From Escherichia virus TH58, in the sequence record MT446423.1: a stretch of 64,000 nt of DNA, one strand, 5' to 3'. How positions within the stretch are numbered: position 1 is the first letter of the stretch; every line of letters begins with the position of its first letter. Below, piece by piece: positions 1,251-22,710 of this stretch. The notes below the pieces were generated by a model that saw only the letters and a program-made list of their open reading frames with translations, had not been told where the DNA came from and did no database searches. A program made the position numbers and the translations under genes.

Positions 1251-1724
1251 ATGTTATTATCAGGCGCAAAATATAAAGAAGAAAAACAAAAATTTTATGA
1301 TGCACAGAATGGTAAGTGTCCTATTTGCCACCGTGAATTAGACCCTGATGTTCAAGGTAACCATCTTGACCACGACCACGAATTAAACGGGCCAAAAGCA
1401 GGTAGAGTTCGTGGGTTACTCTGTAATCTGTGCAACGCAGCAGAAGGTCAAATGAAGCATAAGTTCAACCGTTCCGGTCTTAAAGGACGTGATGTTGACT
1501 ACCTCGAATGGCTTGAAGCTCTTCTTGCTTATTTGAAACAAGATTATTCTGATAATAATATCCATCCTAATTTTGTTCCAGACAAAACTAAAGAGTTCTC
1601 AAGACTAGGTAAAGAGGAAATGATGGCTGAGATGCTTCAAAGAGGATTTGAATATAATGAATCTGATACCAAAACACAATTAATAGCTTCATTCAAAAAG
1701 CAGCTTAGAAAGAGTTTAAAATGA
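1251..1724 (+). CDS. 49: endonuclease VII (Holliday-junction resolvase), gene 49
   Basis: 157 aa; CPICHRE..HLDHDH..CNLCN zinc/His motifs; matches T4 endo VII as remembered; adjacent to nrdD as in T4. Confidence 0.88.
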   Translation: MLLSGAKYKEEKQKFYDAQNGKCPICHRELDPDVQGNHLDHDHELNGPKAGRVRGLLCNLCNAAEGQMKHKFNRSGLKGRDVDYLEWLEALLAYLKQDYSDNNIHPNFVPDKTKEFSRLGKEEMMAEMLQRGFEYNESDTKTQLIASFKKQLRKSLK

Positions 1725-2258
1725 AAATTGAAAAAGAAATTGAAGGATTAATTCATAAAACTAATAAAGATCTTTTGAACGAGAATGCTAATAAAGATTC
1801 TCGTGTTTTTCCAACTCAACGGGACCTTATGGCTGGTATTGTGTCTAAGCACATTGCTAGAAATATGGTCCCGTCTTTTATTATGAAAGCACATGAAAGC
1901 GGAATTATCCATTTCCATGATATTGATTATTCCCCTGCTCTTCCGTTTACTAATTGCTGTTTAGTAGATTTAAAAGGAATGCTTGAGAATGGATTTAAAT
2001 TAGGCAATGCTCAAATTGAAACGCCTAAATCTATTGGCGTTGCTACTGCAATTATGGCACAAATTACTGCACAAGTTGCTTCACATCAGTACGGCGGAAC
2101 GACTTTTGCTAATGTAGATAAAGTACTTTCTCCTTATGTTAAACGCACCTATGCAAAACATATTGAGGATGCAGAAAAATGGCAAATCGCTGATGCGTTG
2201 AATTATGCCCAATCTAAAACAGAAAAAGACGTATACGATGCATTCCAAGCTTATGAGT
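1721..2258 (+). CDS. nrdD: anaerobic ribonucleotide reductase NrdD, exon 1
   Basis: N-terminal NrdD sequence; reading frame hits TAA 2264-2266 just inside a group I intron; 5' splice site placed after U2258 by P1 pairing (exon AUGAGU with intron GCUCAU at about 2272-2277). Confidence 0.85.
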
Positions 2259-2469
2259 TAATTTAATTCAGGCTCATGTAAAACCGGTCTAAACGGGGAA
2301 CCTCTCTAGTAGACAATCCCGTGCTAAATGTTCTTTTGAACTAAATGCCTAACGACTAACCGTGATGAATGTAGCGGTGTAGAATAGAAGCTAATGCTAT
2401 TCGAAACGGCCGGCATCGAAAGATGAAGATATAGTCTAATCTGCATGGCGACATGCAGCAGTCATCTTG

Positions 2470-2477
2470 TATAAATA
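2470..2477 (+). promoter_or_regulatory. T4 late-promoter motif TATAAATA upstream of intron ORF
   Basis: Exact TATAAATA about 30 nt upstream of ATG 2507, followed by GAGGTG Shine-Dalgarno. Confidence 0.4.
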
Positions 2478-2506
2478 AGATTATCTTATGAATACGAGGT
2501 GAAACA

Positions 2507-3277
2507 ATGAAATGGATAAAAAGACGTTGTACTAAAATAAAAGATAAAGACGCATTTACATACTTAGTTAAGTTTTCTAATGGCGACATTTATATCGGTT
2601 ATAAAAAATTTAGAACAATTAAAAACAAGCCCACAAACTGGAAAACTTACACAACGTCATCTAAGTATATAAATGAACGCTTAAAAACTGATACACCTAC
2701 TAAATGGATAATTTTAAAAACATTTGATAGTTATAAAGACGCATTAAAACATGAAGAAGAGGTCATACGTAAATATTTTTATAACAAAAAATGTTTAAAT
2801 AAATCCATAGGCGGTAAAAAGTTTTATAAGCATCCGGATACTGAAGAACATATTCAAAAATTAAGAGATGCTCATAAGGGTAAAGTGTTATCCGAATCTC
2901 ATAAAAACAATATAAAATCTTCTGTAGCTGAATATTATGCTAAAAACGGAAGATCTAAGGAACATGTGCAAAATAATATCAATAGTCGAAAAAGTAAAAA
3001 ACAAGTATCGATAAAGCTTAAAAATAAAACTTTTAGAAGTTTTAAAAAAGCGGCGGAATATTTAAATTGCACTGAAAGTGAAGTCGAAACTCATCCTCTT
3101 GTTTTGAGTATTAAGACTACTATTCATAAAGTTCCTGAATATGTGGTTGTTGACGGTATTAAGTATACGTCTTATATAGAAGCAGCTAAAGCGCTAAATT
3201 TTCATCCTAGCACTATAAAAGAACGTTGCATATCTATGGACTATCCAAATTTTGTTGTTTCATATAAACGGGCATGA
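2507..3277 (+). CDS. intron-encoded GIY-YIG homing endonuclease (I-TevII-like)
   Basis: 256 aa within nrdD intron; N-terminal GIY-YIG-like segment (..DIYIGYKK..), repeated NUMOD3-like basic repeats, C-terminal helix-turn-helix (VVDGIKYTSYIEAAKALN). Confidence 0.8.
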   Translation: MKWIKRRCTKIKDKDAFTYLVKFSNGDIYIGYKKFRTIKNKPTNWKTYTTSSKYINERLKTDTPTKWIILKTFDSYKDALKHEEEVIRKYFYNKKCLNKSIGGKKFYKHPDTEEHIQKLRDAHKGKVLSESHKNNIKSSVAEYYAKNGRSKEHVQNNINSRKSKKQVSIKLKNKTFRSFKKAAEYLNCTESEVETHPLVLSIKTTIHKVPEYVVVDGIKYTSYIEAAKALNFHPSTIKERCISMDYPNFVVSYKRA

Positions 3278-3291
3278 ATTTGCGACTCATG

Positions 3292-4583
3292 CTGAATATA
3301 ATGATGAAGTAAATACACTTTTCAGCTCTAATGGACAAACGCCTTTTGTAACAATTACATTTGGAACAGGAACTGACTGGACTGAACGAATGATTCAAAA
3401 AGCAATTCTGAAAAATCGTATTAAAGGTCTTGGACGTGACGGGATAACTCCTATTTTCCCTAAACTTGTTATGTTCGTTGAAGAAGGTGTTAATCTTTAT
3501 AAAGACGACCCGAACTACGATATTAAGCAGCTTGCTCTAGAGTGTGCAAGCAAAAGAATGTATCCTGATATTATTTCGGTTAAGAATAATAAAACTATCA
3601 CCGGTTCTTCAGTTCCTGTTTCTCCAATGGGCTGCCGTAGTTTCTTGAGCGTATGGAAAGATTCGACTGGTAATGAAATTCTTGATGGACGTAATAATCT
3701 TGGCGTTGTAACACTGAATCTTCCTCGTATTGCATTAGATTCTTATATTGGAACACAATTCAATGAACAGAAATTTGTTGAGTTATTTAATGAACGAATG
3801 GATCTGTGTTTTGAAGCCTTGATGTGTAGAATTAGTTCCTTAAAAGGAGTTAAAGCGACTGTTGCTCCTATTCTTTATCAAGAAGGTGCATTTGGGGTTC
3901 GTCTTAAACCTGATGATGACATAATTGAGTTATTTAAAAACGGTAGAAGTTCGGTGTCTTTAGGATACATTGGTATTCATGAATTGAATATTCTTGTCGG
4001 ACGTGATATTGGGCAAGAAATTTTAACTAAAATGAATGCTCGTCTTAAGCAGTGGACTGAAAGAACTGGTTTTGCTTTTAGCTTGTATTCTACTCCCGCT
4101 GAAAACCTTTGTTATCGCTTCTGTAAACTTGATACCGAGAAATATGGAAGTGTAAAAGATGTTACTGATAAAGGCTGGTACACTAATAGTTTCCATGTTT
4201 CAGTAGAAGAAAATATCACTCCGTTTGAAAAGATTTCTCGCGAAGCACCATATCATTTCATTGCGACCGGCGGACACATTTCTTATGTTGAACTTCCTGA
4301 TATGAAAAATAACTTAAAAGGACTTGAGGCTGTATGGGATTATGCCGCACAACATTTAGATTATTTTGGTGTTAATATGCCAGTAGATAAATGTTTTACA
4401 TGTGGAAGTACCCATGAAATGACTCCTACCGAAAACGGATTTGTTTGTTCTATTTGTGGAGAAACTGATCCTAAAAAGATGAACACAATAAGAAGAACAT
4501 GCGGTTATCTCGGAACTCCTAGCGTTGTTCCGTGGAATTTAGGTAAAATGAAAGAAATGGTAAAACGAGTAAAACATGCATAG
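3292..4583 (+). CDS. nrdD: anaerobic ribonucleotide reductase NrdD, exon 2
   Basis: Continues NrdD; zinc site CFTCGS..CSICG and C-terminal glycyl-radical motif RRTCGYLG; spliced protein about 609 aa. Confidence 0.85.
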
Positions 4584-5406
4584 GTATTATATAATTTATA
4601 AAATAACAAATATAATTAATTCAAAGGAATATATCGGTGCGCATAGCACCGATAACATAAATGACGGTTATATGGGGTCAGGAACATTGATTCGTGCCGC
4701 TTTATTAAAATATGGTAGAAAAAATTTTAATAAAGAAATTTTACATGTTTTTGATAATGAAAAACAAATGTATGATAAAGAAGCTGAACTTGTAACCGAA
4801 GAGTATTGTCTAAAAGAAAATACATATAATATTAAACCTGGTGGAAAAGGTGGAACTGCCTATGAACAGACACTTGAACATCGCCGCAAAAATAGTTTAG
4901 CAAATAAAGGTAAAAAGAGAACAGAAGAAACTAAAATAGCTATTTCACGTGCTTTAAAGAAATATAAACGTACGCCAGAGCATCAAGCAAATTTAAATAA
5001 AGCCGTAAGCATAGCTATGAAGCGAAAAGATGTTAGAAGTAAATTAGCTGGAGAGCGGTCTGAGAAAGATAAATTATCTATATCAAACGGTGTTAAAAAA
5101 TATTACAATTCTTTGAGTGAAGAAGAACGCGAACTTCATCGCAAGCGAATTATTGAAGGTAAAAAGAATTCTCCCATGTCATTGGAATCTAGACAAAAGC
5201 TTTCAAAAGCTTTAAAAGGACTTCAAGTTGGTTCAAAAAATCCAATGTATGGAAAAATTTCTCCGACTAGCAAAACCGTTTCAGTTGACGGTATTAAATA
5301 TGATTCAATTAAAAAGTGCTCAAATGCCATAAAAGTTTCTAGACATCTTATACTAAAACGCTGTAATTCTACTGATGAAGCTTGGAAAAATTGGGTATTA
5401 TTATGA
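4576..5406 (+). CDS. free-standing GIY-YIG homing endonuclease (Seg-like)
   Basis: 276 aa; classic YYIIYKITNIINSKEYIGAHST..GYMGSG GIY-YIG motif, NUMOD3 repeats, C-terminal HTH; inserted between nrdD and nrdG with overlapping start/stop. Confidence 0.8.
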   Translation: MHRYYIIYKITNIINSKEYIGAHSTDNINDGYMGSGTLIRAALLKYGRKNFNKEILHVFDNEKQMYDKEAELVTEEYCLKENTYNIKPGGKGGTAYEQTLEHRRKNSLANKGKKRTEETKIAISRALKKYKRTPEHQANLNKAVSIAMKRKDVRSKLAGERSEKDKLSISNGVKKYYNSLSEEERELHRKRIIEGKKNSPMSLESRQKLSKALKGLQVGSKNPMYGKISPTSKTVSVDGIKYDSIKKCSNAIKVSRHLILKRCNSTDEAWKNWVLL

Positions 5407-5873
5407 ATTATGATAGATTTTATCCTTGCGATTTTGTGAATGGTCCTGGTTGCAGGGTTGTTCTTTTCGTTACAGGGTGTTTGCATAAATGCGAAGGGTG
5501 TTATAATAAATCAACATGGAATGCTAGAAATGGTATTCCATTCACTGGTGAAACACTAGAGCAATTAATTGAATGTTTGAATAATGATTATATAGAAGGA
5601 TTAACTATAACTGGAGGAGACCCTCTCTATCCTGATAACCGAGATGTTGTTCATTGCATCGTTCAAACAGTAAAAAATCTTTGTCCCAATAAAAGCATTT
5701 GGTTATGGACAGGATATAAGTTTGAAGATATTAAACAACTAGAAATGCTTAAATATGTTGATGTTATTATTGATGGGAAGTATGAGAAAAATCTTCCGAC
5801 CAAAAAACTGTGGCGAGGATCAGATAATCAGCGACTTTGGTCAAATACCGATGGGGTGTGGAAACATGATTAA
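5403..5873 (+). CDS. nrdG: anaerobic RNR activating enzyme NrdG (radical SAM)
   Basis: Start refined to MNYDRFYPCDF; CLHKCEGC radical-SAM cluster motif; matches T4 NrdG. Confidence 0.9.
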   Translation: MNYDRFYPCDFVNGPGCRVVLFVTGCLHKCEGCYNKSTWNARNGIPFTGETLEQLIECLNNDYIEGLTITGGDPLYPDNRDVVHCIVQTVKNLCPNKSIWLWTGYKFEDIKQLEMLKYVDVIIDGKYEKNLPTKKLWRGSDNQRLWSNTDGVWKHD

Positions 5874-20207: not shown

Positions 20208-20843
20208 ATGAAAACTACTCCTATTACTATCGCTATTGACGCAATCATAAAACAAGCTTCTTCTTTGGCCGCTATGGCCAAAGTAATTAGTCAAAACCCT
20301 GCTCGTTATAATGCTATTCTAGAAACTCTTCGACGCCCAGGACTTAGTAATTATGAAAGTCGTGTAATTATTACAGGTGTTGGTAAGAACGCTAATATCG
20401 CAACTAAAGCTTCTGAGACTTTTGCTTCATTAGGTATTCCTAGCATGTATTTGAACACCGGGCATTATTCTCACGGCGATGCAGGATTCATTGCGCCTAA
20501 TGATGTGTTGATTCATATTAGTCGTTCTGGTAAAACTGAAGAAATGATAGGCGTGGCTAAGCATCTTAAAATGATTCGTCCGAACGTCAAACAGATTCTG
20601 TTGCATTGTAACCCAGACATTCCACAAGAAAATGAAGCCCTTTTTGATTACTCTTTCTGTACAGGCATCGCAGTAGAGGTTGATGAGAATTCTCTGGCTC
20701 CGACTATGTCCACTACATTGTTGTTAGCGCTTATCGATACGTTTGCTATCAACCTTTCGTCTGAACGTGGATTTACCTCTAATGACTTCCTTAAGTTCCA
20801 CCCTGGTGGTGCACTAGGTGCCATGTTACGAGGCGAACAATGA
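20208..20843 (+). CDS. SIS-domain sugar-phosphate isomerase, arabinose-5-phosphate isomerase-like (no CBS domains)
   Basis: GVGKNANIATKASETFASLGIPSMYL..HGDAGFIAPNDVLIHISRSGKTEE matches the KdsD/KpsF/GutQ SIS signature; not found at this locus in T4. Confidence 0.8.
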   Translation: MKTTPITIAIDAIIKQASSLAAMAKVISQNPARYNAILETLRRPGLSNYESRVIITGVGKNANIATKASETFASLGIPSMYLNTGHYSHGDAGFIAPNDVLIHISRSGKTEEMIGVAKHLKMIRPNVKQILLHCNPDIPQENEALFDYSFCTGIAVEVDENSLAPTMSTTLLLALIDTFAINLSSERGFTSNDFLKFHPGGALGAMLRGEQ

Positions 20844-21024: not shown

Positions 21025-22710
21025 ATGAAAAAAGCTGTTATTCTTGGTGCTGGACTGGCAACTCGTTTGTATCCAATAACGCATCATATTCCTAAGGTGC
21101 TTGTTAACTATAAACAAGACACTATTCTGAGCAATTTGTATACAATTTATTCTGACCTTGGCGCAGATGAAATTATTGTAGTAGTTCATTCAAAATTTGC
21201 TGAAACCGTTCGAGCTTATTGTGAGCAAGAAGGGTTCAATGTGACTATTCGTACAGTTGATGAAGCATATGGTTCTGCTTATGCTCTTGCTAAATTGCAC
21301 AAAGATTTAGACGGTCATAATGTAATTGTTAACTGGTGTGATATTATTCCCGATTTTGGTTCATGGTCTTGGAATGTTAACGCAATCTATGTTAAGGGTG
21401 ACGAATGTCGATATAATTTCGACGGTGAAAATATCACTAACGTAGGTTCAACAGGTGGTAATGTTGTAGGAATTTATCAGTTCAAAGACTGGGAATTCTA
21501 TATGGGTTCTACTGATGAGGAAATTCATGAATACTGCAAAGGACGTGATTTCGTAGAATTCCTTTACGGCAGCGCATTCAATAAATCAGAGCTTATGAAT
21601 CTAATTGATTTAGGTGATATGCCTAAACTTGAAAAGGCTCATGAAGTTCGTGAACTTAATCGTAGTTTTAATGCGGTTGAAATTGGTGAAGAAACTGTAA
21701 CTAAATTCGCATTAACCGAACAGGGCCGATCTCTTCAGAAAGATGAGATTTCATGGTATCTTAAAGTGAAATCAGATTCAGTTCCTCAGTTAGTTTCTGT
21801 TAATGAAAATAACTTTGAAATGGAACGCATTAAAGGTAAGCCGGCATTTGAATATATTAAATCCAAATCGAGTCTTGCTCGTCCACAAATTGTTGATGCA
21901 ATTTTAGATGCACTGAAATTCAGCACAGACACTTATTTTGTAAGTCCTGAAACTGTTCGTCGTGATTTCACTAAAGAATTCTATACTAAAGTCATCGATC
22001 GTTGTGAAAGTATTCAACCATTGATTGATTCATTTGGTAAAATCACACATGTGAACTACACTAAGATTGGACGTCTGAAGCCAATGTTGAAACAAGCTTT
22101 AGAACACCTTATTCGTTATCATAACCGTTCTCAGGGACAGTACTCTGTTATTCATGGTGACCCGAACTTCAGTAATACTATGATTACTGATAATGGTGAA
22201 GTAAAGTTTATCGACCCTCGTGGATATTTTGGTGAAACCAAGATTTACGGGCCAAAATTGTATGACGAAGCTAAAGTGCTTTACGCTGTTTCAGGTTATG
22301 ATGAATTCAACGCCAATCCGACCTGGGGACAGTTTACTATTGATGAAATAACCTGTAATGTGACTATTAACATCAATCCATTAGTTTACAAATATGGAAA
22401 GATGAGTTCGTTTAACGTGTATCATCATTTGGCAGTGGCAATTATCTGGATTGCATTAGGTGGTTATTTCAAGAATAATCCACTTAAAGCGGTAGCCGCA
22501 TATTATAAAGGTATGGAACTTCTGACTAAGCAATTACGTAACATGGGCCGTGTACTTCAGGACGGCACTATTAGTTATGATGTAGCAGAACCTGTAACGG
22601 CTACTCTGATTACAAAAAATCCTGGTAAATGGGTACTAACTGATAAAGAAACTGGTGTTTCTTATCGTCCAATCGGTGGCGATAACACTCATCAATGGGA
22701 ACGAATCTAA
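21025..22710 (+). CDS. bifunctional sugar-1-phosphate nucleotidyltransferase / sugar kinase (561 aa)
   Basis: N-terminal GAGLATRL nucleotidyltransferase signature; C-terminal choline-kinase/APH-like kinase fold with HGDPNFSN catalytic loop and FIDPRGYF. Confidence 0.75.
   Translation: MKKAVILGAGLATRLYPITHHIPKVLVNYKQDTILSNLYTIYSDLGADEIIVVVHSKFAETVRAYCEQEGFNVTIRTVDEAYGSAYALAKLHKDLDGHNVIVNWCDIIPDFGSWSWNVNAIYVKGDECRYNFDGENITNVGSTGGNVVGIYQFKDWEFYMGSTDEEIHEYCKGRDFVEFLYGSAFNKSELMNLIDLGDMPKLEKAHEVRELNRSFNAVEIGEETVTKFALTEQGRSLQKDEISWYLKVKSDSVPQLVSVNENNFEMERIKGKPAFEYIKSKSSLARPQIVDAILDALKFSTDTYFVSPETVRRDFTKEFYTKVIDRCESIQPLIDSFGKITHVNYTKIGRLKPMLKQALEHLIRYHNRSQGQYSVIHGDPNFSNTMITDNGEVKFIDPRGYFGETKIYGPKLYDEAKVLYAVSGYDEFNANPTWGQFTIDEITCNVTININPLVYKYGKMSSFNVYHHLAVAIIWIALGGYFKNNPLKAVAAYYKGMELLTKQLRNMGRVLQDGTISYDVAEPVTATLITKNPGKWVLTDKETGVSYRPIGGDNTHQWERI

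Follow-up and report, generated by a model that had tools for sequence, protein, structure and literature searches.

Identity and position of the gene

The open reading frame at 4576..5406 of the window (by which we mean the whole 64,000-nt stretch of Escherichia virus TH58, sequence record MT446423.1, that was analysed) is very probably segH, which in T-even-type phages encodes a GIY-YIG homing endonuclease from a free-standing gene. It has already been named and published (2005, from T6, RB3 and LZ2, at the same junction), and the finding is not new.

The encoded protein is identical to RB3 SegH (ABI48949.1) at 275 of 276 residues (99.6%), the conservative I274V being the sole difference, and to T6 SegH (ABI48947.1) at 269 of 276 (97%). 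The order nrdD-segH-nrdG is found in the GenBank records AY262138 (RB3), AY262137 (T6) and AY262139 (LZ2), which belong to Sandegren, Nord & Sjöberg (Nucleic Acids Res 2005;33:6203). This reference appears in the T4 mobile-DNA review PMC2988022 and, going by the title of the 2005 SegH paper as cited there, cleavage and homing by SegH were reported. The first-pass annotation had proposed a free-standing Seg-type GIY-YIG homing endonuclease between nrdD and nrdG; the identity to the RB3 and T6 proteins and the same arrangement in those phages support the proposal and provide the name segH. PHROG 314, labelled as homing endonuclease, also matches the protein (E 2.8e-60). A megablast search with the ORF matched 72 phage records at nucleotide identities of at least 90%, 47 of these at 99% or higher, and several of the matched records annotate the ORF as segH. 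The 2005 SegH study reportedly found segH in place of mobC in three of 18 screened phages and located the endonuclease activity close to segH itself; both segH+ and segH- DNA are said to have been cut by SegH, and homing of segH was reportedly seen in mixed infections. That the gene already has a name and a dedicated publication had been missed in the earlier annotation.

The first 20 kb of the window have 96-97% identity to Tequatrovirus genomes, as in a T4-like phage. The features around the gene are as follows.

1721..2258, + strand: nrdD exon 1 (Pfam NRDD, 1.6e-40; boundary set against the intron-less nrdD of RB3).
3304..4583, + strand: nrdD exon 2 (Pfam NRDD, 4.5e-123, and Gly_radical; boundary set against RB3 nrdD).
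4516..4583, + strand: variant nrdD 3' end (...TPSVVPWNLGKMKEMVKRVKHA, then stop), which accompanies segH and shares its final 8 nt with the beginning of segH.
4576..5406, + strand: segH coding sequence (ATG start, 276 aa and stop; from the ORF list).
5403..5873, + strand: nrdG, the anaerobic RNR activase (Pfam Fer4_12, 1.2e-48, and Radical_SAM).

The Pfam matches of the flanking ORFs identify the neighbours as nrdD (upstream) and nrdG (downstream). The two nrdD exons total 1818 nt, which is the length of the intron-less nrdD of T2, and the gene preceding nrdD is endonuclease VII according to Pfam. The stop-to-stop frame of the segH ORF opens at 4573 with an in-frame stop directly 5', and there is no longer form; because of this stop, 4576 is the sole start that retains the GIY motif. 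This start codon sits in ATGCATAG, where the TAG is the stop of nrdD, which ends at 4583. At the other end, the segH TGA (5404-5406) overlaps the nrdG ATG (5403-5405) in a shared ATGA. The coordinates and both overlaps of the 276-aa ORF had thus been given exactly in the first-pass annotation. The gene segH is in no intron or intein; its borders are the stop codon of nrdD and the start codon of nrdG. In RB3, T6 and LZ2, segH has the same length of 276 aa and the same position, overlaps both neighbours in the same way, and is accompanied by the same variant nrdD 3' tail.

Protein domains and catalytic residues

The protein can be divided into three parts.

4576..4860, + strand: GIY-YIG nuclease domain, aa 1-95, with Y8, Y19, G21, E69 and N85 (alignment, AF2 model and Foldseek).
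4861..5259, + strand: NUMOD3-containing helical linker, aa 96-228 (Pfam NUMOD3 and AF2 model).
5260..5403, + strand: tentative C-terminal I-TevI-like DNA-binding (helix-turn-helix) domain (sub-threshold sequence similarity).

The GIY-YIG motif reads Y-I-I-Y8 ... E-Y19-I-G21 ('IIY...YIG') with a 10-residue spacing. We aligned SegH with 62 homologues at 32-91% identity, giving 63 sequences. The motif that had been claimed earlier is present, with Y8 and Y19-I-G21 invariant in 63/63, and E69 and N85 are likewise invariant throughout; T25, D30, Y32 and G34-S35-G36 are further invariant residues. Y8, Y19, G21 and N85 align with I-TevI Y6, Y17, G19 and N90, while E69 aligns with I-TevI E75 only to within one or two residues. 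An arginine equivalent to R27 of I-TevI was not found among the invariant positions of the 63 sequences. R40 is the best candidate for a counterpart, being K or R in only 70% of the homologues; K17, K45, K53 and K68 are basic in at least 95%. Judged from the alignment, the missing R27 counterpart appears to be a trait of the whole subfamily and not a defect of the window copy. Loss-of-function substitutions in the catalytic Tyr, Arg or Glu residues had been named earlier as grounds for refuting the proposal. The alignment does not refute it: Tyr8, Tyr19 and Glu69 (and also Asn85) are intact and invariant, and the Arg cannot be placed anywhere in the subfamily.

The AF2 model has pLDDT values of 96-98 over residues 1-95, with Y8 and Y19-I-G21 located on strands 4-12 and 18-25, respectively, and a chain of six helices over residues 100-213. 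The top three Foldseek matches in the PDB were the I-TevI catalytic domain (1mk0, 1ln0) at probability 1.00 and target TM scores of 0.62-0.65. These matches have rmsd values of 3.2-3.6 Å over 93-98 columns and modest E-values (7e-3 to 2.4e-2), and the next match has an E-value of about 1. Since a phmmer search of SegH against PDB sequences returned chance matches only, the structure model was needed to link SegH with I-TevI. No Pfam GIY-YIG family scored above its cut-off on SegH: PF19835 (SegE_GIY-YIG, aa 32-83) reached 18.6 bits versus 25 and PF01541 was unreported. Many SegH homologues carry PF01541 or PF19835.

The NUMOD3 repeats and the C-terminal helix-turn-helix of the first-pass annotation could be upheld in part. 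Pfam recognises one clear NUMOD3 unit at aa 200-228 (E 3e-8); a borderline match in two stretches, at 20.4 bits and exactly at the Pfam cut-off, was obtained when the segment covering aa 96-131 was scanned separately. Only two to three units thus reach the sensitivity of Pfam, the remaining helical repeats of the linker being unrecognised by it. The helix-turn-helix is represented by sub-threshold sequence similarity only: Pfam I-TevI_DNA-bd matches aa 226-273 at 21.1 bits versus a cut-off of 27 (E 2.8e-4), and BLASTP aligns the last 53 residues with I-TevI residues 193-242 (E 7e-5). The model falls below a pLDDT of 50 at the C-terminus, where the last 35 residues are of low confidence, so that the fold gives no confirmation of a helix-turn-helix.

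SegH and I-TevI of the T4 td intron share the catalytic fold, the Tyr/Tyr/Gly/Glu/Asn residues, a NUMOD3-type linker element, and a similar C-terminal DNA-binding segment. However, I-TevI is intron-encoded whereas segH is free-standing, and identity in the catalytic domain is only 22-25%. Where I-TevI has the R27 helix, SegH has the invariant loop T25..D30-x-Y32-M-G-S-G36. The linker of SegH is also much longer and all-helical, and no zinc-finger Cys pattern is present in SegH. T4 SegD and other T-even Seg proteins are members of the Seg-type GIY-YIG subfamily to which SegH also belongs. By tblastn, SegD matches 91% of SegH at a low identity of 29.5%, and its locus is another one (the T4 gene 23/24 region, PMC2988022). 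Closer in sequence is gp243 of the Cronobacter phage GAP161, with 47% identity over 94% of SegH and a position directly downstream of nrdD; this phage belongs to a different genus (Pseudotevenvirus), and the downstream neighbour of the gene is other than nrdG.

Occupancy of the nrdD/nrdG junction

A 2-kb query spanning the junction matched 842 records, 69 of them with the insert (69-72 of about 842 carry segH). We scored junction states in 60 of the 842 records, sampled at even spacing. In most sampled records, as in T2, nrdD abuts nrdG directly and the matched span falls short of the query by about 825 bp. The junctions of T4 and BEU50 are occupied by mobC (a mobC-type HNH gene in BEU50), and the OMNI12 junction by a different HNH gene of 279 aa; by annotation, BF15 probably carries the same type of HNH gene as OMNI12. 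The earlier claim that another mobile gene occupies this site in T4 agrees with NC_000866, in which the HNH gene mobC is found between nrdD and nrdG. In IMG/VR, the junction is empty in 9/9 Tequatrovirus-like nrdG loci and likewise in most loci of more distant genera; a segH+ Tequatrovirus was not found among 29 nrdG loci.

MobC of T4 is similar to SegH in being the product of a free-standing homing-endonuclease-type gene which occupies the same junction and overlaps both neighbours. It differs in belonging to the HNH family with unrelated sequence (PHROG 655 versus 314 for SegH), and also in how the gene begins: mobC opens with a duplication of the first seven nrdG codons (MNYDRIY), while the start codon of segH falls within the tail of nrdD.

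Sequence flanking segH

In nine segH+ loci, one of which is from a phage classified as Mosigvirus, identity to the window is only 94-96% in the flanking nrdD (compared over 4100-4515) and in nrdG. By contrast, segH itself and the 60 nt of nrdD that precede it are nearly identical across the nine loci, with the exception of LH2. The variant nrdD tail (...TPSVVPWNLGKMKEMVKRVKHA, then stop) is present in 9/9 segH+ loci, beside the segH remnant of PD112, and in BEU50; the ordinary tail (...NPNERGFNLGKNKEIMHRVKHQ, then stop) is found in 10/10 empty junctions as well as in T4 and OMNI12. In megablast comparisons, the match between segH-less phages and the window breaks off at about 4519. The foreign-looking part of the window at this locus consists only of the 64-nt nrdD tail and segH.

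The nrdD intron

A second homing element, the intron of nrdD, lies about 1.3 kb upstream of segH.

2259..3303, + strand: group I intron in nrdD (Rfam RF00028, 72 bits, E 5.4e-18, match at 2223-2458).
2507..3277, + strand: I-TevII-like GIY-YIG ORF in the nrdD intron (56% identical to T4 I-TevII).

An Rfam scan of the whole window at gathering thresholds returned nothing, and the intron was detected only when 2150-3450 was searched alone; the RF00028 signal at 2223-2458 is the only group I intron signal. I-TevIII was considered for the intron ORF and ruled out, since the T4 annotation places I-TevII in the nrdD intron. A T4 late-promoter motif (TATAAATA) occurs at 2470, inside the intron. When nine T4-type endonuclease proteins were used as phmmer queries, the intron ORF was the only further homing endonuclease ORF detected in the 64-kb window. 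The intron is a difference from RB3, whose partial record is without one; segH and the nrdD intron occur together in at least 15 other records.

Expression and proposed homing

Motif scans found neither a T4 late promoter (TATAAATA) nor a sigma-70-like site upstream of segH. The start context consists of a weak GAG 6 nt 5' of the ATG, with no obvious Shine-Dalgarno sequence. PMC2988022 describes many T4 free-standing endonuclease genes as promoter-less cassettes. Most likely segH is a promoter-less cassette as well, which would be read from the nrdD transcript and translated by low-level re-initiation at the ATG overlapping the nrdD stop. In the resulting protein, the N-terminal nuclease domain would be tethered through the long NUMOD3-containing helical linker to a small, putative C-terminal I-TevI-like DNA-binding domain. 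From what is described for the family and in the literature, SegH would be expected to cut the nrdD-nrdG region of a co-infecting segH-less phage in a mixed infection. The break would then be repaired through the recombination-dependent replication of the phage with the segH+ genome as template, so that the recipient would acquire segH along with short lengths of neighbouring sequence. Such 'intronless homing' would result in local marker exclusion.

One could also suppose that segH persists chiefly through a benefit to the phage, either competitor exclusion or expression signals for nrdG, with mobility being secondary. The nrdG start overlaps the segH stop, so the translation signals of nrdG fall within segH. 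According to PMC2988022, an endonuclease gene is more likely to be retained when a promoter is embedded in it, and marker exclusion is one of the effects of homing endonucleases. However, nrdG is expressed without any insert in most sampled relatives, and the scans found no promoter-like site in the 3' part of segH. We therefore regard a primary benefit to the phage as very unlikely; as it also requires an active nuclease, it overlaps with the homing-endonuclease reading rather than replacing it.

Selection and a decayed copy

The ORF is full-length in 8/8 segH alleles examined, with dN/dS values of 0.08-0.44. The most diverged pair, the window and LH2, differs at 30 synonymous and 15 non-synonymous positions (dN/dS 0.11). 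By these values, the SegH protein is under purifying selection. In PD112, the segH copy has an in-frame internal deletion of 588 bp between short imperfect direct repeats, which takes out E69, N85 and the linker.

The decayed copy of PD112 raises the question of whether segH in the window is an intact-looking but spent selfish element that is fixed in its lineage, has lost homing and is heading to decay. The weak start context with no obvious Shine-Dalgarno sequence and the failure to find a conserved equivalent of Arg27 would be in line with such a fate. It is hard to reconcile with full-length ORFs at low dN/dS in all eight alleles and with the presence of all family-invariant residues, and near-identity across backgrounds that are 4-6% diverged and across two genera argues for recent spread rather than old vertical inheritance. 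We accordingly give a spent element very little chance. Taken together, the scattered occurrence of segH among relatives, its recent horizontal spread, the flanking alleles that travel with it and its decay in one phage are what is expected of a homing element.

The nrdG 5' allele

A cluster of eight substitutions lies in nt 12-30 of nrdG, including a triple change GAT->TGC (Asp10->Cys, D10C). The D10C allele is present in 7/9 segH+ loci and also in PD112, BEU50 and OMNI12, and is absent from 10/10 empty junctions. RB3, like most segH+ phages, has D10C; the window differs from them in having Asp10, and in moha and Pu-Krd-SF6, as in the window, segH stands beside the ordinary, 'empty-junction' type of nrdG allele. 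Asp10 is conserved in all 28 IMG/VR nrdG loci, which come from several genera. An exact-pattern scan of IMG/VR found no variant allele; as this collection yielded neither the variant allele nor a segH+ Tequatrovirus, the allele association is drawn from GenBank records only. In a ranked GenBank sample, annotated Escherichia-, Shigella- and Salmonella-phage records at least 92% identical to the variant allele all have an endonuclease gene beside nrdG, and records at 88% identity or less have empty junctions with one exception; since the ranked records are mutually related, these proportions do not come from independent samples.

The Asp10 allele of the window provides a point against the homing-endonuclease reading if the target lies there, as a SegH target inside the 'empty-type' nrdG 5' allele would mean that the window phage cuts itself; the 2005 study reportedly did find SegH to cut its own DNA too. 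It is conceivable, though in our view rather doubtful, that D10C is a cleavage-resistant 'immunity' allele of a target that several unrelated homing endonucleases have in common or compete for, in which case the window phage would hold a minimal, recently transferred cassette and be unprotected. The variant could also simply be donor sequence that was co-transferred.

Discussion

Beyond correct annotation, the gene is of little importance in itself, as it is a described gene whose product is one conservative residue off RB3 SegH. Correct annotation is nevertheless of use, since database labels for segH are inconsistent: 'segD' (a mislabel in several RB-series genome records), 'NUMOD3 motif protein', 'group I intron endonuclease', 'hypothetical protein' and a truncated start at Met33 are all in use. 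The nrdD/nrdG junction of T-even-type phages has at least four occupied states (segH, a mobC-type gene, a third HNH gene, and decayed segH) in addition to the common empty state. If D10C were an immunity allele, the window phage, like moha and Pu-Krd-SF6, would be open to attack by HNH elements or to self-cleavage, and the first ten codons of nrdG are a testable candidate for the target or immunity site.

Endonuclease genes in the nrdD/nrdG junction

We compared the boundary between nrdD and nrdG, which in the window holds segH, with the same boundary in other phages. The genes found in it, or related to segH, and the intron elements of nrdD are as follows.

Features of the junction, of related loci and of the nrdD intron
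L002 (T4): mobC (HNH), nrdD/nrdG junction
L006 (phage BEU50), 695-1327: mobC-type gene, nrdD/nrdG junction
L007 (phage OMNI12), 1672-2511: HNH gene, nrdD/nrdG junction
L005 (phage vB_vPM_PD112), 675-913: decayed segH, 80-codon remnant
L008 (Cronobacter phage GAP161, Pseudotevenvirus), 2459-3310: SegH relative, 47% identity, directly downstream of nrdD
L036, 1-771: similar SegH relative (47%), about 2.2 kb upstream of nrdG
Window 2259-3303: group I intron splitting nrdD (Rfam RF00028, 72 bits)
Window 2507-3277: GIY-YIG ORF of the nrdD intron

The first codons of the HNH genes in the junction are a duplication of nrdG codons (MNYDRFYPCDFVN for OMNI12, MNYDRIY for MobC). In BEU50, the mobC-type gene stands beside an nrdD tail of the segH type at one and the same junction, and this pairing suggests that one endonuclease gene replaced another. 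The PD112 copy of segH has a 588-bp in-frame deletion flanked by short imperfect direct repeats, TTAAAATATG and TTAAATATG (window positions near 4707 and 5294), and the remnant is without E69, N85 and the linker.

nrdG allele and nrdD intron

Codons 4-10 of nrdG (window 5414-5432) were compared across L001, L005, L006, L007, L009 and L039-L044. A variant cluster of 8 substitutions, including Asp10 to Cys (GAT to TGC), is almost confined to occupied junctions, whether these carry segH, a mobC-type gene or a third HNH gene. The ordinary Asp10 allele is retained in the window, and Asp10 is kept in all 28 of the 28 IMG/VR nrdG loci. The 5' part of nrdG also contains a hairpin that resembles a terminator, with a T-run behind it (window 5438-5463, +), at the same place as a terminator annotated in the fPS-2 record.

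The group I intron went undetected in an Rfam scan of the whole window at gathering thresholds. Its GIY-YIG ORF shares only 56% identity with I-TevII of T4, and a late-promoter motif, TATAAATA, lies at window 2470 within the intron region. At least 15 database phages carry both the intron and segH.

Annotation and other window features

Labels for segH are inconsistent across GenBank records (KM606994-KM606999, NC_025419, JN986846, LR215722, OQ378934, OR757453 and MK373782) and include 'segD', 'NUMOD3 motif protein', 'group I intron endonuclease' and 'hypothetical protein'. In some records the annotated CDS (735 nt) begins only at Met33 and so lacks the GIY-YIG tyrosines.

A SIS-domain ORF (211 aa, window 20208-20843) and a nucleotidyltransferase-domain ORF (561 aa, window 21025-22710) come directly after the DNA polymerase gene and look like a sugar-nucleotide synthesis pair. 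A pair of this type is present in T-even relatives with arabinosylated hydroxymethylcytosine DNA. The ORF at 31710-32369 matches Pfam AdfA (anti-DarT factor A; E 2e-117).

Possible origin of the segH start

When window 4575-4584 is compared with empty junctions (e.g. L004, about 655-664), the start of segH, CATGCATAGG, is seen to match the ancestral nrdD tail over 10 nt (...ATC ATG CAT AGG GTT...), in which ATG-CAT-AGG encodes Met-His-Arg of NrdD. Since, in addition, the start Met falls at the position of SegH Arg3 in 45 of 63 SegH homologues, we speculate that the first SegH codons may be borrowed from nrdD and that about 16 additional nt may have restored the nrdD end upstream. The GAP161 relative, like SegH, lies immediately 3' of nrdD, which hints that the SegH lineage has long been associated with the nrdD 3' end.
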